Source: Centroscyllium fabricii | Taxonomy: Eukaryota | Assembly (NCBI GenBank): GCA_051313645.2 | Contig: JBNRSN020000008.1 | Coordinates: forward strand, 42,036,001-42,100,000 | Direction: 5' to 3' | Length of the DNA: 64,000 nucleotides | In this document: in pieces, positions 23,336 through 54,164 of the stretch | How the letters are laid out: every line of letters begins with the position of its first letter | How positions within the stretch are numbered: the first letter of the stretch is position 1 | Position numbers and translations under genes: made by a program | The notes under the pieces: model-generated | Databases searched by the model: none | What the model saw: only the letters and a program-made list of their open reading frames with translations | What the model was told of the DNA's origin: nothing

Positions 23336-23607
23336 TGTGGTAAACCACTGTATATTGTATATAGATGTCTCCCCCTTGTGTCCCCTCCCTGTAACTGTAC
23401 GTAACGCCTCCTTGCCAGGGAGGACTCACCTGGGAGGACTCCGCTCCTCGGCTTCCTCCCCAGGCTCCGCCCACTGGGTATAAAAGTGAGAGCACACCTG
23501 AGTGCTCTCACTTTGGCTTGGAAGATCGTCGGACCTATGTCCTCTTCTATGTGAATAAAAGCCTCGATTACATCTCACCATCGACTGGAGTAATTGATTG
23601 TGCATCA
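23336..23607 (+). mobile_element. Solo Gypsy LTR
   Basis: TGTGG...TGCATCA, perfect 5-bp TSD ATCAG, TATAAAA and GTGAATAAAAGCC. Confidence 0.92.
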
Positions 23608-24330: not shown

Positions 24331-27300
24331 AATTCAATTCAATTCAATTCAAATAGCTTTATTGGCATGAATGGTATCAACCGTTGTTGCCAAAGCATTG
24401 TAATATACATAAAAAAATAATACATTAGTAGACGTAATAACAACAGTACTAACAGAATATATACAACCGCATCTGTAATAATATCAATAGATATATAGTT
24501 TACATGCAGTTTCAAACAGTATCACAGTCAGTGTTGGTCATTCTCTGCCTGTGTGTGCGTTCATGTGTGCATGTTGGTCATTCACTGTCCCTCAGGTTGT
24601 GGCATGCTGTTACGTATTGTGCACCAAGCTGTGCCCTATCTCCTTCGCCAAGGATTATTTTTAGTTTTAAAGTATCATCTAATTCTTTGAAATCTGGGAT
24701 TTCTAGGCTTAGTTTGTCAAAGTATGTTTTCCTTGTTTTGTCGAATTTTTTGCATTTTAGGAGGAAGTGCATCTCTGTTTCAACCTCATCTGTCAAGCAG
24801 TGACCGCATATTCTATTTTCTCTTGGCTGCCAGGATTTCTTCTGTCTTCCTTTTTTGACTGCCAACTGGTGGTCACTTAGTCTGTACCTGGTGAGGGTCT
24901 GTCTCTGCTTTATATTTCTGACAGTTGAAAGATAGTCTGCCAATTTATAATCTCTTTCTAGGGTACGGTAGCATTCTAGTCTGCTTTGGTTTTTGGTTGC
25001 TTTTTCCCAATGTTCCAAATATGTTTCTTTGCATTTTTTGATGATTTGGTTCACTCTAATTGATGTTTGGAAAGCAGTGTTGATCTGAGACTGGTCAAGG
25101 TTTGACTGAGTAGGGGTAGTCTCAGTACCAACTGACACAGGGGACTCTTTTCTGGGTTCCGCTCTTGGGTTTGGAGGGCTTTAAACTGGAGGGAGTCTGG
25201 GGGACTAGATTTAAGGTGATTCCAAAAATTTAATATTCTTTTTTGGATATTTATAATCAGTGGGTATCTGCCTAGTTCCGCCCTACATGCGTTTGTTGGT
25301 GTTTTCCTTTGGGTGCGGAGGATGCTCCGGCAAAATTCCGCATGTAGGGCCTCCACTGTGTGTTTTTCCCATTTAGCATAACTATGATGACTGAGCGAAC
25401 CCCACACTTCACTACCATAAAGCACAATGGGTTGGATTACGCTATCAAATATTTTAAGCCAGATTTTAATTGGGATTTGGATGTTGTAGAATTTTCTTTT
25501 GATTGCATACATAGCCCTTCGAGCTTTCTCTTTTAGTGCATTCACTGCCATGCTGAAGCTCCCTGATGCTGTAATGGTTAGACCAAGGTAAGTGTAGCTC
25601 ATAGTGTGTTCGATAATGGTATCCTTAAGGGTGAATTTGTATTTGTCTTCCTGACATCTGTTTTTTTTTGTTGAAAAATCATGATGTTTGTTTTCTTTAG
25701 ATTTACTGTCAAGGCCCAATTTTGGCAGTACTCATCGAGTAGATCTAACTGTTGCTGCAGTCCCTGTTCTGTGGGAGACAGCAGAACCAGGTCATCCGCA
25801 TAGAACAGTGATTTTACCTCTCCGTCCAGAAGACGGAGGCCCGGCGCTGTGCTCTGTTCCAACTTTACTGCCAAATCGTTTATATACATATTAAACAGTG
25901 TCGGGCTCAGATTGTAGCCTTGCCGGACGCCCCTCCCCTGGGTGAAGAGACCAGTGCATTTGTCCCCAATTTTAACCCTACATTTATTGTTCAGATACAT
26001 TGATTTAATAAGGTCGTATACCTTTCCTCCTATACCGCAATGGAGAAGTTTGTAATAGAGCCCTTCATGCCAAATAGAGTCAAATGCTTTCTTAAAGTCA
26101 ATAAAACAGGCAAATATTTTACCATTTTTTACTTGGTGTATATGTTTTCCGATGAGAGTGTGAAGGGTATGGATATGGTCAGTGGTGCGGTGTTTCGGGA
26201 GGAAGCCAATTTGGTTTTTACTGAGGATATTATGTTCGCTGAGGAAATCCTGCATTCTACTATTTATAATACTGCAGAATAACTTCCCTAGGCAACTACT
26301 GACACATATGCCGCGGTAATTGTTTGGGTCTGATTTGTTTCCGCTCTTATAAATGGGCGAGATAAGCCCTTGACACCAGATATCAGGAAAATCGCCTGAA
26401 CGTTAGATGAGGTTGAATATGCTGAGCACTGCGTCCTGCATCTCCAGAGTGCTGTACTTGAGCATTTCATTTTTGATGTTGTCTGTGCCACAGGCTTTCT
26501 TTGGGTGGAGAGATTTTATTTTTGTGGCCAGTTCTTCCGAAGTAATAGAGAAGTCGAGAGGGTTTTGGTAGTCTTTAATTGTTGTTTCTAATGCTTGGAG
26601 TTTTTCTTTGATATGGGAGTAATTTGGGTTTATTTTGTTTATTGGGATGTCTTTATATAGGTTTTCAAAATGTGCTCTCCAGATATCACCATCTTGAATT
26701 GGTAATGTTTGTGGTTTTGTAGTGCTCAGGTTATTCCACATATCCCAGAATTGGTTTTGATCTATGGAGTTTTCAATCTCTTCAAGTCTTTTGTGGGTGT
26801 AATTTTGTTTTTTGTTCCTAGTAGTGTGTTTATATCTTTTGAGAGTTTCATTATATCTAATACGCAAGTCTGGGTTGTTTGGTTGGTGGTGTTTTTGGTT
26901 TGATAACCTTCTCAGATCTTTCCTGACACTTTTGCACTCGTGGTCGAACCATTTTTCATGGTTGTATTTTTTTATAATTTTTCTTTTCTGTTTCACAAGG
27001 TCAGCTTTAATAGCTGCCCTGTGGAAGATCGTGTTGATATCATCTATGGCCGTGTTTACACCATCTCTGGTAGTCTCATATAGGTTTGTCTTGAGTTTCG
27101 ATATTTTATTTGTGAGGTCAGGTGTATTCAGGGCCATGATGAACTTATCTCCACTATCTGGAGCCCATCTGTATGCCTGATTTATTTTATACAGCTTACT
27201 GGGCTCTTTTTTTATGTCTTTAGTTTGAACAGAAGACTTTAGGTACACATTGATTTGGCTATGGTCTGAGAGAGGGGATTGCTGCCTGACAGTGAATGCA

Positions 27301-28116
27301 CTGATAGTACAGGAGTCCATGTCAGTGATTGCATAGTCCACCACACTAGACCCAAGAGCTGAGGAATATGTGAACCTCCCCTGCGAGTCCCCTCTGATCC
27401 TACCATTAACTATGTACAGGCCTAAGGCTCGACAGAGATGCACTACCTCTCTGCCACTTTTATTTATTTCACAGTCAAGGTTGTTCCGGTTGGTGATGGT
27501 TGGTGTGACGTACAAGGGGGTTTGACCGAACACATGGTTGTTGCCATGTGGGTCTATGTAATCGGGTTCACATCCGGTCCTTGCATTCAGGTCCCCACAT
27601 AGTAGTACATTTCCCTGGGCCTGGAAATGGTTGATCTCCGTGTGGAGAGTTTCAAATATATCTTCTTCAAAGTATGGCGATTCTACTGGGGGTATGTAAA
27701 CAGCACATAGGTATATATCATTTCCAGTTATTCCAATTTTTAAATCTAATTTCAGCCACATATGTGACTTTCCATGTTTTATTGATGTGATGTGACTGTC
27801 TAGTTCTCCTTTGTACCACACCAAGACGCCCCCGGAGGTTCTGCCCTTACGTATATTAGTAGTTTTTACCGAGGGCACCATGACTTCATGATATCCTGAG
27901 GGGCAGTGAATGAGCGTATCTTTTCGGTACCATGTTTCTGTTAGTATCATTATATCAGTGTCTTCTATGGATTTTAGGAAATCAGGGTTCATAGTCTTCA
28001 TCCTGAAGGTTGAAGAGTAGAGATCCTGGATATTCCAGCAGCTTATGTGGAATGAACTCATTTTAGTTTTTTTCTTTTACAATTAGAGAAGGAACCTATT
28101 TTGTGGGACAGGTGTG
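24331..28116 (-). mobile_element. RTEX-like LINE, complete but frameshifted ORF2 (APE + RT + C-terminal zinc finger), ORF1 absent
   Basis: ORFs 26403-28061 (SCWNIQ, LTETW, GDLNAR, SDH), 25599-26255 (GVRQG, FYADD), 25051-25719 and 24578-25138 (RLSDH.L...GR..RICGHC..ETEMHFLLKC); (ATTGA)n tail; TSD AGAAGTC. Confidence 0.88.
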
Positions 28117-31546: not shown

Positions 31547-33431
31547 TAGGCTCAGAGGTGATACGGGGTCTTTTTGTGTAACCCACTTACCAAAATGGCC
31601 ACCACAGTTCCAAGTGCCTAACAATAAACAGAAACTATAATGCAGCCATTTTGAAGCAAGCTCGAGACAAGAGTTTGCTTATTACATGGATGCAGCACAA
31701 TGTTTGAAAGATTGGCTAATCCACTACAGGTTTGGATTCTTCACACTGGCTGCACCAGATGCTGACACCATAGTTTCAAATTAAAATTTCTTGAAGCATC
31801 CAGCCAAAACATCATAATTATTTGGCAGGCAAGCTTGGCATCATACACCCAACAGCTGCAGTCAATTCAGCAATTTGGTCGGAGTGGCCTCAGGAACAAG
31901 GTGCAGCCGAGCACTTCTGTTTTGTGTGAGGCAGATCAGGCTGCTCACAGAATAATTGTCAGTGGCATACTTGATGATCTTGAGTTGTTGATCCGCCCAG
32001 GGAACATGTGACCGTCTTGCAGAACCATCCATTCTGATTTGTAGGTTGTCAAAGAATCTCTGGTTAACTAGAACCCCCCGAGGGTGGGCAGATGGTACTT
32101 GCAACATAGTGTAAGTGATTTTGTGGCCGGTTTTGCAGGTGGTGGGGGGTGGGGTGAAATTGGCCTTTGCTAGTAGTGCACATGGGGCTTGTAGTGAATC
32201 AGCAGCCCATTTTCCAATTAAAATTGGGTGCGATGTAAAATGGGCCGCCGAGTCGCTAGGAGCTTCTTTTGGACTACAGGTGTTGAAGAATTTTCCCCCC
32301 GATACATCAGCATTAGTCCATTTGGTGGATGACCATTCCAACATATTGACACCAATTATATGGGTGGATGTGATTGACACCACATATCACAGGCTTTGAT
32401 TTACTGTAGTAGGATCTTAATCAGCCTCCAATTTTTGATGGCATGCTGCGGCATTGGTGGTACGCCAGGATGGAATGTTCAAAATCTTGTTTACAGGATC
32501 ACTGTTCTAGTGACCCCAGGTGTGTTGACAGTTGGCTGCGACAAATATGCAAGACTTCAACGGTGATATTGTTACTGTGGTGGATGTTGCTTCCTGAGGC
32601 AGATCCACATTGTCAATAGTGTTATTTTTCACCTGACAAACGCAGCAGATATAGTTGGAAATGCACTGCTTTCACCCTGGGCTAATTGATTCTCATTCCA
32701 AGGCTGGCAGTTTCTGTGGATAAATGATTGATAGCTTCTAACAGATGTACAGGAACGTTATCATCAGCCGCAGTCATTAGTAAAACTATCCAGCTCGTCT
32801 TTTAAAAAAAATAGCTGGTAAGAAAATCAGTTTGGAAGATATGACAGCGAAATACTGCGGATGCAGGAAATCTGAAATAACAACAGAAAAAGCTGGAAAA
32901 TCTCAGCAGGCCAGGCAACATCCATGGAGAGAGGGAAACAGAGTTAACGGCCCAAAACTAAGGGTGACAGCGGGCCGTTTTGGAGCCGGGTACTCATGCG
33001 TGTGGGCTCCAAATTGAGGGTAGCAGCCATTTCCCGGTGCTACCTGCAATTCCTATGAAGGCCAGCGGGGGATCGCGAGCTGCAGCGAGCTGAAGCACGT
33101 TCGCCTGCGCACCAGGAGGGGCACAGTAGGATTCTGTTTTTTTTTAGAGTTTTTTATCGGGGTAAGTGATGCGCAAATCAATCACGCCAGTCGTTGGTGA
33201 AAAGTAATTGAAGGCTTTTATTCAGAAAGAACTGAACCTGGTCTGCGATGAGTCCGCCCGGAATGAGAGCCAGGTGGGCGGAGCATTCTCCTTTATACCC
33301 ATACTCAGAGGCGGGGTCAGCCGGTCCAGGTCCAGGTCCTTACAGAAAGCTACAGATTTATTAACACAAACTATATACAATAATAGCACAGTGTGAACCA
33401 CACCAAATGGTTCATCAAATTCACCCCTTCC

Positions 33432-34553
33432 TCAAAAACAAGTCCCGCGGGGCGAATATCTGCACTGTGTTATCAGTCTTTGAGGAGGTCGAACAGTCCG
33501 AACAGACCTGCAAGGCAGTGGCGGCTCTCGCGAATAGGCGGGAGCAGTCTCAATTGGAAAAGGCGCCGACGGAGCTTCTGACGTGAACAGAGACTCCACC
33601 GGTGGAAGAGGTACCTCATGCGCAGGAAGATCAGGTGGAGGTGTAGCAGCCGCCGGAAGGGTAGGCTGAGCAACGTGATGAGCTCCGTCGTGCATTGTGG
33701 ATGATGAGGGCCCCGATGTAGTGTGCGCAGGTGAATGAGAAGACGGCCCTCGTTGCGAAAATGTGACCTGGGAGGGCAAGGGCTCCGCCAACGACTGTAA
33801 GTGAACGTCTCCAGCGGGCGCAAGGTCTCTAATCGAGACGGTGTCCTCACGCCCGTCTGGGTACTCCATGTAAGCATACTGAGGGTTGGCATGCAGCAGG
33901 CGCACACGTTCAACAAGAGGGTCCGTCTTGTGTCCACGGACGTGTTTCCTAAGCAGAACCGGCCCCGGGTTGGTAAGCCACGTCGGCAGAGACGTCCCCG
34001 AAGTTGATTTCCTGGGGAAAGAGAAGAGTTTCTCGTGGGCTGTACAAAAGAGGGAACGGGTAGTGTGGAGCACATCCTGGAGGACCTCCTGACAGTGGGA
34101 GGTTGGAAGGCCTCTGGAACGAAGGGCCAGGGTGATGGCCTTCCAGGTGGTCCCATTATAATGTTCTACCTGACCGTTCCCCCGGGGGTTGTAACTGGTC
34201 GTTCTGCTCGAGGCAACCACCCTCACGAGCAGAAAATGACGCAGTTCGTCACTCATAAATGAGGACCCCCGGTCGCTGTGTATGAAGCCGGGAAGGCCGA
34301 AAATGGCGAATAGCGTGATAAGATGCTTTATCACTGTTGCACTCGTCATATCTGGGCATGGGAATGCAAAAGGGAAACGGGAGAACTTGACAACCACAGT
34401 GAGAATGTACGAGATACGGTTGGTAGAGGGGAGGGGACCTTTGACGTCCACACTCAGGCGCTCGAATGGGCGGGTGGCCTTGATGAGGTGCGCCCTGTCA
34501 GGCCTGTAATACTGGGGCTTGCACTCAGCACAGACAGGGCACTCCTGCGTCAT
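33432..34553 (-). pseudogene. pol: Integrase with GPY/F-like C-terminus
   Basis: CPVC, LSVDVKGPLP, IHSDRG, NGQVE, GPVLLR..DTVSIRDLAP. Confidence 0.92.
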
Positions 34554-34742
34554 CGCCTTGATCTCCGCAATGGAATAAGGGAGATTGCGTGATTTGACGA
34601 AGTGAGCGAGCCTGGTGACCCAAGGGTGGCAGAGATTAGCGTGGAGGGTGTTCAGACTACCCGACTGGGCGCTGGCACACGATCCTCGGGACAGGGCGTC
34701 CGGGGGATCGTTAAGCTTCCCTGGCCAGTACAGAATGTCATA

Positions 34743-36832
34743 CTAAAAAGCGGAGAGGTCGATCTGCCACCTGAAGATCTTGTCATTCTTGATCATACCC
34801 CTCTGTTTATGGTGGAACATAAATGCTACTGACCACTGGTCAGTAAGAAGGGTAAAACATTTACCGGCCAAATAGTGGCGCCAGTGGCGTACTGCTTCCA
34901 CGATTGCTTGGGCCTCTTTTTCCACTGAAGAGTGGCGGACTTCAGGGCCCTGTAGGGTACGGGAGAAGAAAGCGACGGGCCTGCCTGCCTGGTTAAGGGT
35001 GGCGGCCAGGGCGAAGTTTGAGGCGTCGCTTTCGACCTGGAAGGGAAGAGACTCATCAATGGCGTGCATGGTTGCCTTGATGATGTCTTGCTTGATATGC
35101 GAAAATGCAATTTGGGCCTCTAACGGGAGCGGGAAGGAAGTAGCTCTGAGGAGAGGCCGGGCCTTATCAGCATAATGGGGAACCCATTGTGCATAATACG
35201 AGAAAAACCCCAGGCATCTCCTCAAAGATTTGGGGGAGTGCGGCAGGGGCAGCTCCTGAAGGGGGCGCATACGTTCGGGATCAGGGCCGAGGACCCCGTT
35301 CTCAATTATGTAGCCGAGGATAGCCAACCGGTTAGTGTTGAAAACGCACTTATCCTCATTGTAAGTAAGGTTCAGACGCTGGGCCGTACGGAAAAACCTG
35401 TCGAAATTGGCATCATGATCTTGCTGGTCATGGCCGCAGATTGTGACATTGCCCAAATACGGGAATGTGGCCTGAAAGGGTACTGGTCAACCATTCGGTC
35501 CATCTCCCGTTGGAAGACCGAAACTCCATTGGTAACCCCAAAGGGGACCCGGAGGAAGTGAAAAATGCACCCATTTGCCTCGAAGGCAGTGTATTTACGG
35601 TCCTCAGCTCTGATGGGGAGCTGGTGATAGGCCGACTTAAGGTCGATGGTGGAGAAGACCTTATACTGGGCAATCTGATTGACCATGTCATTGATCCTAG
35701 GAAGCGGGTAAGCGTCGGGCGCAGTGTAGCGGTTAATGGTCTGACTATAGTGAATGACCATGCGCTGTTTGTCGCCCGACTTAACCACTACCACCTGGGC
35801 CTGCCACGGGCTGTTACTGGCCTCGATGATGCCCTCCCGCAACAACCGAGCAACCTCTGCCTTAATAAAGGTGTGGTCCCCCGCGCTGTATCGCCGACTC
35901 TTGGTTGCAATGGGCTTGCAGTCAAGGTCAAGGTTGGCGAACAGCGAGGGGGGGTCTATCTTCAAGGTAGACAGATCGCAAGAGGAGTGTGGTTGTGAGG
36001 CAGGGCAGTCACGGCTGCTGACCGTGAGATGAGGCAGGGGACCGCCGTACGCCATCGTCATGCTCTGCAGGTGGCACTTGAAATCCAGGCCAAGCAACAC
36101 AGTGGCGCAGAGCTGTGGGAGGACGTACAGTGGAAAGTTGCGGTATGTCGTCCCCTTCACAGTAATGGTGACTGTACAGCAGCCGATGACGTCCACAGTC
36201 TGGGACTCGGAGGCGAGGGAGATGTTACGATGTGCGGGCCTAACCCTGAGGGAATAACGGCTCACTGTACCAGGGTGTATGAAGATCTCCGTACTCCCAG
36301 TGTTGAACAGACAGCGGGTGAGGTGCCCCTCCACCCGGATGGGCATCATTGATAAAATAAGCGACGGGTTTGGGGCCGTAGAGGCAAGTGTAGTGTGCGC
36401 GCTGGGGCCCTTGTGCAAAGCTGGGTCTGCGTGTGATGGCGACGCCCGTGATTTGCACGCGGCGGGCCGCGGTGGGGTTTCGGACCGTCGGGCGCCCGAA
36501 TGCTGAATTGGTCTGGAGTGGTCTGTTGCTGCTGCCAGAATCGTAGTGGTTGCTGTGAAGTTGCCAGTTACTGCAGGTGCCTGTTCTTTTAAATTGTTCC
36601 TACACCAAGATGGCGGTGGCACGTGATGGGGCGGGCCCGCTGCAGTCGGAATGCGGGCTGTCCTATACAAAGATGGTGGTGTCACATGATGGGCGGGGCC
36701 GCTGCAGCTGTGACGCAGGAAGATGGCGTCATCACGTGATGGGGCGGGGCCTCTGTTGCCGGGATGCAGGCCATCCTGCACGAAGATGGCGGCGTCGCGT
36801 GATGGGGCGGGGCCGCTACTGCCGTCCTGCAC
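34743..36832 (-). pseudogene. pol: Pol protease, RT and RNase H, frameshifted
   Basis: CLFNTGS, IDLKSAYHQ, VPFGVTNG, PYLGNV at the YxDD position, VESDAS, SVEKEA. Confidence 0.9.
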
Positions 36833-36872
36833 GAAGATGGCGGCTCACGTGATGGGGCGGGGCCTCTGCTGC
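36606..36872. repeat. Five-copy GC-rich minisatellite between gag and protease
   Basis: Unit core AAGATGGCGGC-N-CACGTGATGGGGCGGGGCC, about 50-63 bp spacing. Confidence 0.85.
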
Positions 36873-37058
36873 CCGGAGGCCCGACGGCGCCCGCGTTTCG
36901 TGCCGCTCCAACGAAGAAGAAGGCCGCACCCCCAAAGATGCCGATACAGCGCGGGATCCGACGGAGGGAAAAAGACGCCCGCGCCCCCAACGATGGCAGA
37001 CGACGCTGGCAGGCCGCACCCGAGGCAAGTTAAGTAGGAATTGTTCTGGGGGCCGCTG

Positions 37059-37949
37059 TTAGGGAGCGCCAGGTACCTGAGGCCACTCTGTGGCGTGGAC
37101 ATCGCAGGCTCCTGCCGTTTTGCTTGCAGATTCCGGGGCCGATCGGCAGACCTTCGCAAAGTGGCCCTTCTTGCCACATTTGGAGCAGGATGACGATTTT
37201 GCTGGGCAGGAGCTTCGTGGATGGCGTTTCTGGCCACAAAAATAGCATTTCAGAGGCTTTGGCTGTCCAGATGGCGCCGTGGCCGCCACGGTCGCCATCG
37301 AGGGCGTCGGACGCGAGTCCCAAGGCCCAGGGGAAATCGTGTGGGAGCCGTGCCCCGTGTACGAATCCAGGCTTCGGAGGGCCCCATCCACCGCGTTGGA
37401 GAGCTTCACCGCCTGATTCAGGGACAAATTATCCTGCTCGAGCAGGCGGGTGTGAGCTGGGGCCGATCTGATTCCTGCCACGTAGGCATCGCAGATGAGG
37501 AGGTCCATGTGCTCCTGGGCATTAACAGGGGCACATCCGCAGCACAGAGCGAGAGCTTGAAGAGCCTCCAGAAAAGCTTCATTCAACTCACCATGCTGTT
37601 GACTCCGCGTGGCGAGTAGATGGCGAGCGTAGACGGCGTTGACTGGCTGGAGGTATCGAGCCCTCAGCAGCTCCAATGCTGCATCGTAGTCAGTGGCATT
37701 CTTAATAATAGAATATACCCTGCCACTCACGCAGGAGACCTGGACTAGTCTCCTGTGCGCATCGCTGACTTCAGCCACTACCAGGAACGATTCGAAACAG
37801 CTCAGCCAGTGCTCAAAATCGTTCGACGCGTTCGGTGCCTGGGGGTTGAGGTCGAGAGTTTTCCATTTAAGGATAGTTTTCCAGCTTTCTGAAGGTGTTG
37901 GCTGGTGTGCTGCTGGCTGGTGGCTCTGTTGTTGATCATCATTCTGCAT
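37059..37949 (-). pseudogene. gag: Gag with two CCHC knuckles
   Basis: CYFCGQKRHPRSSC and CSKCGKKGHFAKVC. Confidence 0.88.
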
Positions 37950-38885
37950 TCTTGTAACTTTGTGAATAAAATTGATGCGCAAATCAATCACGCCAGTCAT
38001 TGGTGAAAAGTAATTGAAGGCTTTTATTCACAAAGAACTGAACCTGGTCTGCGATGAGTCCGCCCGGAATGAGAGCCAGGTGGGCGGAGCATTCTCCTTT
38101 ATACCCATACTCAGAGGCGGGGTCAGCCAGTCCAGGTCCAGGTCCTTACAGAAAGGTACAGATTTATTAACACAAACTATATACAATAATAGTACAGTGT
38201 GAACCACACCAAATGGTTCATCACAGTAAGTATTGAAAAGGTTACGCTGACAAATATCAGCCATAACGATCCCTTTTTTATCCGGTAAGTGTTTTATGTT
38301 ATAGAATTTAAGTTTTTTTTTACAGGTTTTTACTTTTTTTAAACTGTAAAGACAGGTAACTATTTTTTTAGGACAGTTAAAAACTTTTTTTTAAAATTCT
38401 ACATTTAAATTTTTTCTTTAAAATAGCTAATTAATGTTAGTTGGAGTATTGTTAAAAAATGTGTTTTATAAATTTTATTTTTGCATTTAGATGTGTTTTT
38501 GAAGCTCTTCCTTTTCATAACCTACATAGATTTCTCTGTGTGAGTTATGAATGGAGGATTGCTTCCATTGATTGTCTCCCAGCAGATCACGTGGTGCTGT
38601 GCGAGATCTCCCACTAACTACAACATTGAGTTACACCAGCGCGGCGCCTGGAGCCTGCAGCAGCTTCACAAATCGGGATTTCACATCCCAGAATTGCAGA
38701 ACGGCAGGAGCGCAGGGCAAGTGGACCTCGGAGGCATACACGCGCAGGAAGCCTCCAAGGCTAATTTTGGGGCCATTATTTCAGGTCGAAACCCTTCTTC
38801 AGGACTGAGAAAAAAGCAGGAAATGAAACAGATGAAAAAGCAAGTTGGGGGCTGGGAAATGGGGGAGGGGATGAAAGAACAAAAG

Positions 38886-39545
38886 GCACAGCGGCAGCAG
38901 CTTCGCGGGCTTTTTTCAAAGCCAGGGGGAGAGCACAGCGGCAGCGCGACGTGGAGCGGACCTAGAGGGGGTCCCATAGTCGGCGGGGGCGGAAATAGCA
39001 GCGAGGAGGCGGCTACAAAAGTCGCCGAGGAGCGAGGCCCAGAGCACAGCGGCAGCAGCTTCGCGGGCTTTTTTCAAAGCCAGGGGGAGAGCACAGCGGC
39101 AGCGCGACGTGGAGCGGACCTAGAGGGGGTCCCATAGTCGGCGGGGGCGGAAATAGCAGCGAGGAGGCGGCTACAAAAGTCGCCAAGGAGCGAGGCCCAG
39201 AGCACAGCGGCAGCAGCTTCGCGGGCTTTTTTCAAAGCCAGGGGGAGAGCACAGCGGCAGCGCGACGTGGAGCGGACCTAGAGGGGGTCCCATAGTCGGT
39301 GGGGGCGGAAATAGCAGCGAGGAGGCGGCTACAAAAGTCGCTGAGGAGCGAGGCCCAGAGCACAGCGGCAGCAGCTTCGCGGGCTTTTTTCAAAGCCAGG
39401 GGGAGAGCACAGCGGCAGCGCGACATGGAGCGGACCTAGAGGGGGTCCCATAGTCGGCGGGGGCGGAAATAGCAGCGAGGAGGCGGCTACAAAAGTCGCC
39501 GAGGAGCGGCAGCAGTTTCGCGGGCTTTTTTCAAAGCCAGGGGGC
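38886..39545 (+). repeat. 158-bp CpG-rich tandem monomers (about 4.2 copies) at the CR1 5' end
   Basis: CTTCGCGGGC recurs at 38901, 39059, 39217 and 39375; partial fifth copy. Confidence 0.95.
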
Positions 39546-40005
39546 GGGGCCAATCCATTGGTACCCGTATATAGGTGGAGCAGTTGCTAAACCCGAGACA
39601 CTACACTAGTAGTGTCTCCCACCCTTCCACCTCCTCTAACCTTTAGGGTTAGAGGGAATTTAAAAGGTAGGTGATTTATTGTTTATTTTTAGAGACTGAA
39701 CTTAAGTGGAAGGGGCTCCTGGACTCAGGTAGCAGTCGGTGGCAGCAGCAGGACCAGGGCAGGAATTTTTCGCGGGTCTTTCTTTCAGGAGCAGGCAGCG
39801 GGACGGTACTAGGAGGAGACAACAGGAGGCGGCAGCTATAAAGGCAAGCAGGGTAAGTGATTTTTTATTTTTTTTATTTTTATTTCTTTTTCTGAGGTCT
39901 CTGTGGTATAACGGGGACTTCTGGTAGACTAGCACCCTAGTATATATCTTGGTTTTTTTGGTGGTGTTAATTTTTTTTTCGTAAAAGTAATTAGAGGGGT
40001 ACGTC

Positions 40006-40940
40006 ATGTCAGGGGAGCTCGGTGCCATGCGTTGCTCCTCCTGCCACATGTGGGAAGCCAGGGACAACACTGGAGTCCCTGATGACCATGTGTGTGGGAA
40101 ATGCGTCCACCTTCAGTTACTGACTGACCGCATTGCGGCACTGGAACTGAGGGTGGATGGGTTATGGAGCATTCACGATGCTGAGGGGTGCGTGGATTTC
40201 TCGTACAGTGAGCTGGTCACACCGCAGGCTAAGGGTGTGCAGGCAGAAGGGGAATGGGTGACCATCAGAAAGAACAGTAAGGCCAGGCAGGTAGAGCAGG
40301 AAACCCCTGTGGCCAGCCCCCTCACGAACAAGTATACCGCTTTGGATACTGTTGGGGGGAACGACCTACCAGAGGAATGCAGCAGTGGCCAACCTCCGGG
40401 CATTGGGGTTGCTTCTGCTGTTCAGCTGGGGGGGAAAAGGCGTGAGAGAGCAATAATGGTAGGGGACTCTATCGTAAGGGGAGCAGATAGGCGTTTCTGT
40501 GGCCGTAGACGTGACTCCAGGATGGTCTGTTGCCTCCCTGGTGCCAGGGACGGCTGCAGGGCATCCTGGAAAGGGAGGGAAACCAGTCAGAGGTCGTTGT
40601 ACACATAGGAATCAACGACATAGGTAAAAAGAGGGATGAGGTCCTGCAACAAGAATTCAGGGAGCTAGGCAGAAATTTAAAGTGCAGGACCTCAAAGGTT
40701 GTAATCTCTGGATTACTCCCTGTGCCACGATTTAGTGAGTATAGGAATAGAAGGATAGAGCAGCTTAATACGTGGCTCAAGAGTTGGTGCAGGAGGGAGG
40801 GCTTTAGTTTCCTGGATAACTGGCCCTGTTTCTGGGAGAGGTGGGACTTGTATGGGGACGATGGTCTCCACCTTAACCGGAGGGGGACCAATATCCTGGC
40901 GGGGAGGTTTGCTAGCATGGTTGGGGAGGGTTTAAACTAA
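40006..40940 (+). pseudogene. CR1 ORF1 (zinc finger, coiled coil, SGNH esterase), frameshifted near 40550
   Basis: CSSCHM..CGKC, VGDSIVR, VHIGIND, DGLHL split across ORFs 40006-40608 and 40530-40940. Confidence 0.9.
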
Positions 40941-41011
40941 CTTGGCAGGGGGTTGGGATAGGTAGTGGAAAAGAGGGAGGTCATAGGAAGCCAGAAACAA
41001 ATGGTAGGAAG

Positions 41012-43891
41012 GTGAGAAACAATAAGCAAGGGAGAGAAACACAAAGGGCCAAACAAATTCATAATAGTGTGATCAAAACAAGCCTAAAGGCTTTGTATCT
41101 CAATGCAAGAAGCATTAGGAACAAGGTGGATGAACTAGCTGTGGAAATAGAGGTAAGCAAATATGAGTTGATTGGAATTACGGAAACATGGCTGCAGGGG
41201 GGGCAAGGCTGGGAACTCAACATCCCGGGGTATACAACATTCAGAAAGGATCGGCACAAAAGAAAGGGAGGTGGGGTGGCATTGCTGGTGAAAGAGGGGA
41301 TAAATGCAATTGAAAGGAAGAATATTAACTCAGAGGATACGGAATCTATATGGGTAGAACTAAGAAATAGTAAAGGGCGGAAAACATTAGTGGGAGTTAT
41401 ATACAGGCCTCCAAATAGTAATATGGAGGTGGGGGACTGCATAAAAAGGGAAATTAGAGAAGCTTGCAATAAGGGCACAGCTGTCGTCATGGGCGACTTT
41501 AATCTACATATTGACTGGACTAGCCAAGTTAGTAAAAATACTGAGGAGGAGGAATTCCTAGAATGTCTACGGGATGGGTATCTGGACCAATATGTCGAGG
41601 AACCAACTCGGGATCAGGCCATCTTAGACTGGGTATTGTGCAATGAGAAGGGACTAATTAGCAATCTAGTTGTACGAGGCCCCTTGGGTCGGAGCGATCA
41701 TAATATGATCGAATTCTCAGTTGAGATGGAAAGTGAAAAGATCAACTCAGAGACTAAGGTCCTGAATTTAAATAAAGGGAATTATGAAGGTATGAGAAGG
41801 GAATTAAGCAAGATAGATTGGGCAGTGTTCCTGGGGGGATTGAATGTGGTTAGACAATGGCAAGCATTCAAGTATAGGATGGAAGAAATACAGAACTCGT
41901 TCATACCGGTTTGGCATAAGAATAAACCTAGAAAGGTGACTCAACCGTGGATAACAAGGGAAATAAGGGACAACATTAAATCCAAAAAATGGGCATATCA
42001 ATTGGCCAAAAAAAGTACTAGGCCGGAAGATTGGGAGCAGTTCAGGATACAGCAAAGGAAGACAAAGGGATTAATCAGGAGGGGGAAGATAGATTACGAA
42101 TGTAAGCTGGCGGCAAACATAAAAACTGACTGCAAAAGCTTTTATAGGTACATCAAGAGGAAAAGATTGGTAAAATCCCAAGTCGGTCCCTTGCAGTCCG
42201 ATTCAGGGGAATATATAATGGGGAATAAAGAAATGGCAGACCAACTAAATTCATATTTCGGTACTGTCTTCACAAAGGAGGACACAAGCAACCTCCCAGG
42301 GATAGCAGCGAACATAGGGTCTAATGCAAGGGAGGAGCTGACAGATATCAGTATTTCTAGGGAGATGGTTTTGGGGAAGTTAAAGGGATTGAAGGCCGAC
42401 AAATCCCCAGGGCCTGATAATCTACATCCTAGGGTACTTAAAGAGGTAGCCCTGGAAATAGAGGGTGCTTTAAGGATCATTTTCCAGAACTCGATAGACT
42501 CTGGATCAGTACCCACGGATTGGAGGGTGGCTAATGTTACCCCACTATTTAAAAAGGGGGGCAGAGAGAAAGCAGGGAATTATAGACCAGTAAGCCTTAC
42601 ATCAGTAGTGGGCAAAATGCTCGAGTCCATTATCAAGGATGTAATCTCGGAGCATTTGACAATTAGGGATGAGATCGGACAGAGTCAACATGGATTTACA
42701 AAAGGTAAATCATGTTTAACTAATCTATTGGAATTCTTTGAGGAAGTAACTCGGAAAGTAGATGGGGGAGAGCCAGTAGATGTGGTGTACCTTGACTTCC
42801 AGAAAGCCTTCGATAAGGTTCCACATAAAAGATTAGCATGTAAAATTAAGGCTCATGGGATTGGGGGCAAAGTTTTGATGTGGATAGAGAACTGGTTGGC
42901 AGACAGAAAACAGAGAGTTGGAATTAACGGCTCGTTTTCTGAGTGGCAGCCGGTGACTAGTGGAGTACCGCAGGGGTCTGTCCTGGGACCTCAGCTGTTT
43001 ACAATATATATTAATGATCTGGATCAGGGAATTGAATGTAATATCTCCAAATTCACGGATGACACCAAACTAGGAGGGGGGGCAGGCTCTGAAGAGGGTG
43101 TCAGGAAGTTACAGGGCGATTTGGATAAGTTGGGGGACTGGGCAGATAGATGGCAGATGCACTATAATGTGGATAAATGTGAGGTTATCCACTTTGGGGG
43201 CAAAAACAGGAGGGTAGATTACTACTTAAATGGCAATAGATTGGGAGATGGGGAGGTGCAGAGAGACCTGGGTGTTCTTGTGCACCAGTCGCTGAAGGCG
43301 AGCACGCAGGTGCAGCAGGCGGTTGGGAAGGCAAATGGTATGTTGGCCTTCATATCAAGACGGTTCGAGTATAGGAATAAGGATACCTTACTGCAGCTGT
43401 ACAAGGCACTGGTGAGACCACACCTCGAGTATTGTGTACAGTTCTGGTCGCCTCGCCTGAGGAAGGATGTTCTTGCCATGGAAGGAGTGCAGCGGCGTTT
43501 CACCAGGCTGATTCCTGGAATGGCAGGAATGACCTACGAAGAGAGATTGTGTAGTCTGGGCTTGTACTCGTTGGAGTTTAGAAGATTGAGAGGCGATCTC
43601 ATTGAGACGTATAAAATTCTGAAAGGTCTGGACAGGTTAGATTCAGAGAGAATGTTTCCAATGGCGGGGGAGTCCAGAACCAGGGGCCACAGTCTAAGAA
43701 TAAGGGGTAAGCCATTTAGGACAGACATGAGGAAGAATTTCTTCACTCAGAGAGTGGTGGGCCTGTGGAATTCCCTGCCACAGAGGGCGGTGGAGGCCAG
43801 TTCATTAAACATATTCAAGAGGGAATTGGATATATTTCTTCAAGCTAAAGGGATTAAAGGTTATGGAGAAAAGGTGGGGACGGGGTACTAG
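41012..43891 (+). CDS. CR1 ORF2: APE endonuclease and reverse transcriptase, 959 aa uninterrupted (true start uncertain)
   Basis: YLNARS, ITETW, GDFN, SDH; NYRPVSL, DFQKAFD, GVPQGS, KFTDD. Confidence 0.95.
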   Translation: MRNNKQGRETQRAKQIHNSVIKTSLKALYLNARSIRNKVDELAVEIEVSKYELIGITETWLQGGQGWELNIPGYTTFRKDRHKRKGGGVALLVKEGINAIERKNINSEDTESIWVELRNSKGRKTLVGVIYRPPNSNMEVGDCIKREIREACNKGTAVVMGDFNLHIDWTSQVSKNTEEEEFLECLRDGYLDQYVEEPTRDQAILDWVLCNEKGLISNLVVRGPLGRSDHNMIEFSVEMESEKINSETKVLNLNKGNYEGMRRELSKIDWAVFLGGLNVVRQWQAFKYRMEEIQNSFIPVWHKNKPRKVTQPWITREIRDNIKSKKWAYQLAKKSTRPEDWEQFRIQQRKTKGLIRRGKIDYECKLAANIKTDCKSFYRYIKRKRLVKSQVGPLQSDSGEYIMGNKEMADQLNSYFGTVFTKEDTSNLPGIAANIGSNAREELTDISISREMVLGKLKGLKADKSPGPDNLHPRVLKEVALEIEGALRIIFQNSIDSGSVPTDWRVANVTPLFKKGGREKAGNYRPVSLTSVVGKMLESIIKDVISEHLTIRDEIGQSQHGFTKGKSCLTNLLEFFEEVTRKVDGGEPVDVVYLDFQKAFDKVPHKRLACKIKAHGIGGKVLMWIENWLADRKQRVGINGSFSEWQPVTSGVPQGSVLGPQLFTIYINDLDQGIECNISKFTDDTKLGGGAGSEEGVRKLQGDLDKLGDWADRWQMHYNVDKCEVIHFGGKNRRVDYYLNGNRLGDGEVQRDLGVLVHQSLKASTQVQQAVGKANGMLAFISRRFEYRNKDTLLQLYKALVRPHLEYCVQFWSPRLRKDVLAMEGVQRRFTRLIPGMAGMTYEERLCSLGLYSLEFRRLRGDLIETYKILKGLDRLDSERMFPMAGESRTRGHSLRIRGKPFRTDMRKNFFTQRVVGLWNSLPQRAVEASSLNIFKRELDIFLQAKGIKGYGEKVGTGY

Positions 43892-51939: not shown

Positions 51940-52182
51940 TGTGGAGCCTCAAATCAGAGCCGACAGCTTGTTCTAACGAAAGGCTTTTATTTACAAAGAA
52001 CTGAACCTAGTCTGCGATGAGACCGCCCGGAATGAGAGCCAGGTGGGCGGAGCATTCTCCTTTATACTCATACCCAGAGGCGGGGTCAGTCGGTCCAGGT
52101 CCTTACAGAAAGGTACAGATATATTAATCCAAACTATATACAATAATAGCACAGTGTGAACCACACCAAATGGTTCATCACA
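51940..52182 (-). mobile_element. Solo LTR related to the 33167-38225 provirus
   Basis: Perfect TSD ATCAT; about 200 bp closely match the provirus LTR. Confidence 0.93.
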
Positions 52183-52968: not shown

Positions 52969-54164
52969 GAGGTCTATGTGGTAACCGTATTACCAGTGTA
53001 TATAGTAACCGTATTACCAGTGTATATATGGATGTGCTCACCTTTGACATTGTACATTGTATGCAAGGCCAGATCAGCCACACCTCTAACTCCTCCCCTC
53101 AGGTGGGAGCATATAGGTGAGGGCTGCCCTGCCCCCGCTCATTCTCGCCTTGAACTCGACAGGAGACTAGCTCCATTGCAAGTGAATAAAAGCCTGTAGT
53201 TTGGGTAACTACTCATCTTTCGTGTTTGATTGACGATACGTCAGTCTATTTTCCTGAAGGTGTGGGAAATGGGTGGATTCCCCGCTGATCACTCTATCTT
53301 CCCGCTTTCTGAAGGGTGTGGAAGCCCCACATAATTTTGGCTTAATTGGCCAATTAAGTCCCTGAGTTTGGGAAGCCCCTGGCAATTGATTCATTTTAAA
53401 CAGAAAGCGGGCGGGTTTTTCCACTGTGTAAGCAGCAGAGGCAGTGACTGGCATATGTAAGTGGCCTGCAGTTTCTCTTTCTGTGTTTTCAGGGCATTAT
53501 GATGTCATAATGGAATGTAAACAGAGTGTACCCGCAACTCGGTGAGTGCCAGCTGTAACTAGTCTGGTCTGTTTGCTTGTTGTTTCAGTCATTTCAAAGA
53601 GAGCAATGCTATGTAAACAGAAACTAACACCCCATGGATGATTGACAGATCTGAGTGCTTTGATTCACAGCAGGCTCCTGACAGCTGCACAGTGCATCTT
53701 ATGTAAGCCATTGCGATGGAGCTGGCAGGTAAGTGATTTAAAGGTCTTTGGCCACTGATCTTGGGCACCCAAGGGAGACAGGTAGACCTCCAGCATGTTG
53801 GAGGTCAGCAAGCCATTCAGCGGCAGGTGCTTCCATGCCTTGAGGATGGAAGTCACCAAGCCGGTTGTGTGTCCACCAGCTTTCAATGGTGGTTTTTCAA
53901 TCAGGCGGGTTTTGCATGGGAAAAGGCTCAAAATAACAAGGAGCCTTTAAAATGGCATTACCGATGCCATATAAGGGCCCCTAATGAGCCTAACGACCAT
54001 CCCCACCAATGCCAGGTGGAACTGAGGCGAGCCGATCGGACCCACCGGGTAAAACAGACAAGCGGACGGGAAGCCAGTGGGAAGGGTCGCGGGCCACCGT
54101 TTTAGCTATTTTCCATACAGGCCCACCCAAAAACCCGTCTGGTGGCTCCATGAAAATTGACCCC
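52969..54164. mobile_element. Harbinger-like MITE with a solo LTR inside its left TIR
   Basis: GAGGTCTA[LTR]TTTTCCTG ... ATGAAAATTGACCCC. Confidence 0.82.
52977..53243 (+). mobile_element. Solo Gypsy LTR
   Basis: TGTGG...ACGTCA, perfect TSD GTCTA, GTGAATAAAAGCC. Confidence 0.92.

Follow-up and report, generated by a model that had tools for sequence, protein, structure and literature searches.

A covarying duplex in the primer position of a chromodomain-less animal clade of Ty3/Gypsy elements suggests self-primed reverse transcription

Introduction

How does an LTR retrotransposon begin reverse transcription if no tRNA can pair behind its 5' LTR? The question is raised by a Ty3/Gypsy element of Centroscyllium fabricii. 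It lies in the window, as we call the whole stretch of 64,000 nucleotides that was analyzed, and the initial annotation of this DNA had proposed that the element lacks a tRNA site and carries in its place the complement of a segment of its own LTR. Priming by the 3' end of a tRNA requires TGG (PMC5006619). In Tf1, it is bases 1-11 that pair with the site, and RNase H cleaves just after them, between positions 11 and 12 (PMC7175516). The Tf1/Sushi group consists of chromoviruses; its members form a three-duplex pretzel, and their RNA starts where the self-primer has its 5' end (bioRxiv 10.1101/2022.12.06.519325). Self-priming is established for Tf1/Sushi, and for plant TAR Copia elements it has been predicted (PMC6317226); the present case concerns a chromodomain-less animal Gypsy clade. 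Published work is cited throughout from the accessible parts of its text.

Architecture of the window element

The LTRs, TSD and protein domains define a Ty3/Gypsy element of 5.06 kb on the minus strand (33167-38225 of the window; Table 1). Its two LTRs show 6 differences, and the copy is damaged by a stop after gag, a frame change within RT and one in-frame stop. A domain scan of the integrase frames found no chromodomain. Gag is distantly similar to a K02A2.6-like protein (E 2e-15), and the closest named proteins to the element come from rays. Among solved structures the RT, compared by way of the relative P0004, is closest to Ty3 (Ty3-G, E 3e-74). By LTRs, TSD, polypurine tract and domain order, the window element and its relatives are Ty3/Gypsy LTR retrotransposons. 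The interval between gag and protease (36400-37050) is GC-rich, contains short direct repeats (36607-36698, 36720-36811) and is longer than in most database relatives.

Table 1. Features of the Gypsy element and of related solo LTRs, in window coordinates.
Feature	Position	Strand	Remarks
Left TSD CTTAC	38226..38230	-	5 bp; right copy 33162-33166
5' LTR	37973..38225	-	253 nt, TG...CA; 247/253 identical to 3' LTR
TATA box TATAAA	38098..38103	-	putative function
Inr-like TCATTCC	38066..38072	-	predicted start A 38070, 33 nt after TATA start
Second Inr-like TCAGTTC	38035..38041	-	A 38039, 4 nt upstream of arm; alternative Tf1-like start
Putative self-primer arm in 5' LTR	38022..38035	-	GCC comes next; covaries across families
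Possible LTR-end hairpin	37971..37988	-	ATTGAT (37988-37983)/ATCAAT (37976-37971); adjoins primer site
Primer-binding position	37958..37971	-	complementary to 38035-38022, without TGG
gag with zinc knuckle	37062..37949	-	terminates in stop; zf-CCHC E 8e-4, below curated cut-off
pol: protease, RT, RNase H, integrase	33435..36844	-	Gypsy order
Polypurine tract	33420..33436	-	ends in AA, abuts 3' LTR
3' LTR	33167..33419	-	253 nt
Solo LTR, related family B	23336..23607	+	TSD ATCAG
Solo LTR, related family C	52977..53243	+	TSD GTCTA
Solo LTR, sister subfamily of window element	51940..52182	-	TSD ATGAT

The 14-nt self-complement claimed for this element was confirmed: TTTTATTCACAAAG (37971-37958) is the exact reverse complement of LTR positions 38035-38022, for which 1.3e-6 chance matches would be expected for a 14-mer in a 253-nt LTR. 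The paired arm does include the poly(A) signal that had been placed there (AATAAA, 38028-38023), and the element indeed has no TGG after its 5' LTR. A spacer of one base had also been described; it holds for the window element (A at 37972), while across families the spacer is 1-2 nt, with pairing from +2 or +3 after CA. The perfect 14-mer is retained in 27 of the 30 best-matching copies in the 7.2-Gb genome (window copy included), two copies deviating on the primer-site side and one on the LTR side. One of the 6 LTR differences of the window element falls in the 3' LTR copy of the paired arm (33225), a one-base change that probably arose after insertion.

Covariation between the LTR arm and the primer site

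Both solo LTRs to which the initial annotation had drawn attention (23336-23607 and 52977-53243) contain GTGAATAAAAGCC, as it had stated. Full copies of the respective families elsewhere in the genome have primer sites altered in step with their own LTRs: CTATGTGAATAAAA pairs with TTTTATTCACATAG in family B, and TAAGTGAATAAAA with TTTTATTCACTTA in family C. Three family C solo LTRs with identical flanks on a single contig (L068, L069, L070) are a segmental duplication, not separate insertions.

Relatives were collected with a sequence pattern and with protein-guided scans. The pattern, its variable part left free, had 10,601 matches in the genome versus 4,879 for a control pattern. Among 66 matches examined, 37 had gag and 29 did not; at least 9 bp were counted at 24 of the 37 gag-bearing places in a fixed register that we judged too rigid, and the gag-less matches never exceeded 7 bp (0/29 at 9 bp or more). 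Of 559 metagenome loci from the protein-guided scans the best 80 were included, along with 6 contigs from prokaryote bins. The latter, GTDB contigs that bear elements of this eukaryotic clade (L173-L178), are probably host contamination of the bins. An IMG/VR scan gave only 2 matches, both to the zinc knuckle.

Sufficient upstream DNA was available for 166 of 181 gag starts; these represent 59 families, 22 of them found in this genome and the other 37 elsewhere. A register-free search found a longest perfect inverted repeat of at least 11 nt upstream of gag in 41 of the 59 families, versus 2 of 472 dinucleotide shuffles.

Pairing was counted column by column in the 47 families with a duplex of at least 8 nt and CA (15 from this genome, 32 from other hosts), a filter that itself favours pairing. 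Watson-Crick or GU pairs were present at +1 after CA in 3/47 families, at +2 in 44/47, at +3 in 46/47, at +7 to +11 in 47/47, at +14 in 42/47 and at +15 in 28/47; the families are related, so these counts are non-independent events. Part of the own-genome set came from a pattern that builds in 4-5 pairs, and the 32 families from other hosts were recovered by protein similarity alone. The representative of one family (L105) is without the terminal CA, hence mis-anchored in the column counts, and it was excluded from the stem and hairpin tests described below. The 12 families left out of the column counts were all single copies with only 5-7 bp. In L276, one of these 12, both LTR and gag are clear, yet the LTR arm mismatches the primer site; it may be a decayed or recombinant copy.

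Across the 47 families, several pair types occur per column and the primer site takes 44 distinct 13-mer sequences. At the nine variable positions, a primer site forms on average 8.4 of 9 pairs with its own LTR, versus 4.6 with the LTRs of other families, a difference reached in 0 of 20000 permutations. A two-sided change is seen even within one family (L108 versus L100). Covariation among relatives had been set beforehand as a test of the proposed duplex, and it is present and strong, the primer site tracking the LTR of each family. In the proposed fold, the paired arm measures 11-19 nt and ends at ...UAAA. Directly after the arm, (A/G)CC follows in 22 of the 32 families from other hosts and is a sequence constraint beside the presumed cut. 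At the other end of the LTR, AA precedes TG in 16 of 18 loci, which are non-independent; this fits a short terminal extension.

Search for a host RNA primer

If a host tRNA, a tRNA half or another small RNA served as primer, the match in the LTR would be a copy of that RNA. Half-tRNA primers do occur in Copia lineages (PMC6317226), and our search for a tRNA was partial. In the genome, 34 places combine the 12-mer of the arm with a T-loop motif, and ARAGORN, applied to 30 of these 34, found a tRNA gene at none of the 30, mitochondrial tRNAs lying outside the test; within these limits, the host tRNA match that the initial annotation had wanted sought did not appear. TGG is absent from positions +1 to +5 after CA in all 47 families. 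Moreover, the primer site varies with the LTR of each family, so that one host RNA cannot serve all of them: there are 44 different primer-site sequences, each matching its own LTR only. We therefore regard a host RNA primer as most improbable.

Phylogenetic placement

The window element is a member of a clade that is very abundant in this genome, as judged from the RT of duplex-bearing families found in 6 of 16 genome stretches that had been chosen for their chromoviruses (L224-L239). A Chromo or SH3_Tf2-1 domain was found in none of 28 proteins of the clade, while the same domain scan detected both domains in 5 control elements of this genome. These controls (L226, L227, L229, L234, L235) are Sushi-type chromoviruses with a chromodomain and a self-primer (GCTCAGTCTTG in L235), and they served as positive controls for the duplex test. 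In that test, their self-primer measured up to 11 nt and lay at least 154 nt before the LTR end; they also have an extra duplex with the sequence after the site, and a TATA-like motif about 30 nt before the self-primer.

In an RT-RNase H tree, from which 30 of 89 rows had been removed as at least 85% alike, the duplex-bearing families, the window element and a set of named proteins form one group (100/100, branch 0.94). The named proteins come from Hypanus, Narcine, Trichuris, Trichinella, Macrosiphum, Oratosquilla, Actinostola, Apostichopus and Styela. These relatives are known from proteins alone, and their position in the tree suggests that their elements would carry the duplex as well. Grouping the duplex clade with the chromoviruses was rejected (p-AU 0.0076) in a topology test that used 29 of the remaining 59 rows. 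The trees are unrooted, and the chromoviruses sampled in them are the chromodomain-bearing elements of this genome only. Placing the RT on a Gypsy tree, a check proposed at the outset, thus set the window element apart from chromoviruses.

One Gypsy lineage (L306 and L308; also L337, L338) joins the chromoviruses in both trees and is intermediate between those and the duplex clade; no LTR pair was found for L306/L308. A neighbouring Mag-like family of the same genome has TGG in 1 of 2 copies. The clade is without chromodomains and distinct from the Sushi-type chromoviruses of the same genome, and its members are LTR elements with no tRNA site and with a covarying duplex in primer register.

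Predicted priming mechanism

Covariation, the outcome of the limited tRNA search and, in own-genome families, TATA and Inr motifs upstream of the arm support the self-priming reading that had been put forward. We consider it highly probable that reverse transcription is self-primed through this duplex, in a manner that works like Tf1 in an element that is not a Tf1/Sushi member. By analogy with Tf1, the R region would fold back, so that the 11-19 nt ending in ...UAAA meet their complement immediately behind the 5' LTR, a pairing to which sequence and covariation point. The RT-RNase H of the element may, as in Tf1, cut at the 3' edge of the arm. Such a cut would place a 3' OH 1-2 nt away from the end of the LTR, the usual position of a tRNA primer's 3' end, and minus-strand DNA could, again as in Tf1, be extended from 1-2 nt after CA.

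The case for the duplex rests on covariation and not on folding energy. On its own, the 146-nt region folds with no more than ordinary stability (z -0.72), and the 91-nt core with unusual stability (z -2.8). The possible hairpin at the LTR end competes in the MFE fold with an alternative stem in the loop; an LTR-end stem of at least 5 bp is present in 11 of 15 own-genome families (null mean 3.5) and 3 of 31 others. No third duplex, formed by post-site sequence with the loop, rose above shuffles across the families of the clade. A suspected leader hairpin 5' of the arm was dropped, being not above shuffles either (mean z 0.15 and 0.44).

Sequence does not distinguish a fold-back from a primer supplied in trans by the R region of a second RNA copy, from its 5' or its 3' end; the arm is present in both LTRs. 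The loop of 24-68 nt (mostly 30-68) across families fits a local fold-back, however, and a primer from the 3' end would need downstream RNA and tail to be removed, which makes priming in trans very unlikely in our view.

Where the self-primer begins depends on the RNA start. A TATA box had been claimed at about 38097-38104, and TATAAA was found there (38103-38098). Similar motifs recur in own-genome families: a TATA-like motif lies 78-93 nt upstream of the arm end in 11 of 15, and an Inr 48-53 nt upstream in 10 of 15. With this spacing, the predicted primer of own-genome families is about 50 nt long and not the first 11 nt, and their RNA would start about 35 nt upstream of the arm, near 38070 in the window element. 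TATA at a matching distance occurs in only 1 of 32 outside families, so that the motifs point to the long-primer geometry in own-genome families rather than clade-wide. The proposal of a start upstream of the arm is therefore upheld, as a prediction for own-genome families, by their TATA and Inr positions.

The alternative is the exact geometry of Tf1, in which the RNA would start with the arm or shortly ahead of it (A 38039 is one candidate), and the primer would be the first 14-18 nt of that RNA. The Inr-like TCAGTTC 4 nt before the arm would suit such a start, and a second Inr-like motif near the arm is present in 3 of 15 own-genome families (the window element and two more), although without a TATA at matching distance. 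In one family (L106) the first paired base is the A of a TCATTT motif, a TATA at about 80 nt is missing from 31 of 32 outside families, and alternative starts are used by Tf2 (PMC5341516). Against this stand the TATA and Inr positions of the own-genome families just given, and the contrast with the Sushi-type control, whose TATA-like motif lies so much closer to its self-primer. On this evidence we find the exact Tf1 geometry unlikely, though it deserves to be kept in mind, and we lean towards a primer that is a 5' fragment of about 50 nt in own-genome families, unlike the first 11 nt of Tf1. Two short contigs (L096, L146) have their first base at the arm; they were considered as start sites and rejected, since a break of the assembly at a repeat accounts for them.

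The poly(A) signal

The duplex could have a second effect, since in many families the arm includes the poly(A) signal. AATAAA or ATTAAA lies inside the arm in 15 of 15 own-genome families and 18 of 32 outside families. No complementary site stands behind the 3' LTR of the window element, and the poly(A) signal of the 3' LTR thus cannot form the duplex in cis. Where the arm includes the signal, there is not quite an even chance that the duplex hides it, and does so at the 5' LTR only. Of the 14 outside families whose arm contains no canonical signal, 4 carry one in the loop and 10 in neither place, and masking therefore cannot be a universal role. It is a plausible second use of the duplex, not the reason for its clade-wide retention.

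Going further, one might suppose that the duplex solely suppresses the poly(A) signal of the 5' LTR and that another host RNA or a protein acts as primer. That the signal sits within the arm so often, and that the duplex can form at the 5' LTR alone, would agree with such a role. Yet those 14 outside families keep the duplex without the signal in the arm, no other primer site is visible in the 47 families, and the edge of the duplex keeps a constant place at +2/+3 after the LTR, a constraint that priming, and not masking, requires. We consider masking as the sole function improbable.

Relation to known elements

Like Tf1 and Tf2 of Schizosaccharomyces pombe, Tj1, Tosmo1-3 and Tf1/Sushi in general, the elements described here are Ty3/Gypsy, have no tRNA site, carry after the LTR a site complementary to their own R, and would have the primer 3' end beside the LTR end (PMC7175516, PMC4600332, bioRxiv 10.1101/2022.12.06.519325). 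They differ from Tf1/Sushi in having neither chromodomain nor SH3_Tf2-1 domain in 28/28 proteins and in forming a separate RT clade. Furthermore, their arm overlaps the poly(A) signal (not in all families) and ends 24-68 nt before the site, the third duplex of the pretzel is missing and an LTR-end stem is found mainly in own-genome families, in which the start is also predicted about 35 nt upstream of the arm.

Outside Tf1/Sushi, self-priming has been predicted from LTR complementarity for the TAR lineage of plant Ty1/Copia elements (Houba, Osr-1; PMC6317226), a precedent for a second origin of self-priming. Unlike the present clade, the TAR lineage belongs to the Copia superfamily and to plants, and there the mechanism is a prediction only (PMC6317226). 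Skipper of Dictyostelium and the fungal GalEa Copia elements likewise have no tRNA site after the 5' LTR, but Skipper has a polypyrimidine stretch without a complement in the LTR, and the GalEa hairpin lies wholly downstream of the LTR (PMC5006619, PMC5445492). In host range and domain order, the clade resembles metazoan non-chromoviral Gypsy clades (Mag lineage, MolGy, PolGy), whereas its Mag-like neighbour in the same genome has a TGG-type site.

The clade probably already has an RT-based name among these metazoan non-chromoviral clades. The accessible text of the metazoan Gypsy surveys PMC6238403 and PMC8556966 contains no mention of a PBS or of primer binding, and neither these two nor PMC2871265, in their accessible parts, nor a full-text search by motif gave a match for a clade name. 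In the accessible literature, with subscription papers and Repbase outside our reach, we found no account of self-priming in a chromodomain-less animal Gypsy clade; that an earlier remark on it exists for this very clade is conceivable, if on balance doubtful.

The accessible literature ties self-priming in Gypsy elements to Tf1/Sushi chromoviruses, and a second large clade would widen that; its protein relatives are from rays, nematodes, an aphid, a mantis shrimp, a sea anemone, a sea cucumber and a tunicate. If the mechanism holds, independence from tRNA would be far commoner in animals and would probably have more than one origin within Gypsy elements, and such elements may be beyond host control through 3' tRNA fragments directed at the primer site. 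More tentatively, self-priming may have evolved here independently and animal-wide, a single duplex both making the primer and hiding the 5' poly(A) signal, with a 5' fragment of about 50 nt, internal-ended, cut at a conserved TAAA^(A/G)CC, a geometry undescribed for Tf1/Sushi; we hold this complete scenario to be less probable than not, unlike self-priming as such. In practical terms, annotation that requires a tRNA site misses such elements, and the sharp, covarying duplex yields exact predictions for the RNA start, the cut site and the cDNA end.

Other repeats in the window

A tandem array with a period of 158 nt (38728-39659) lies just upstream of the Gypsy element. The window also contains two non-LTR retrotransposons with endonuclease and RT, one on the plus strand (40916-43891) with an open frame of 991 aa, the other on the minus strand (25599-28076).
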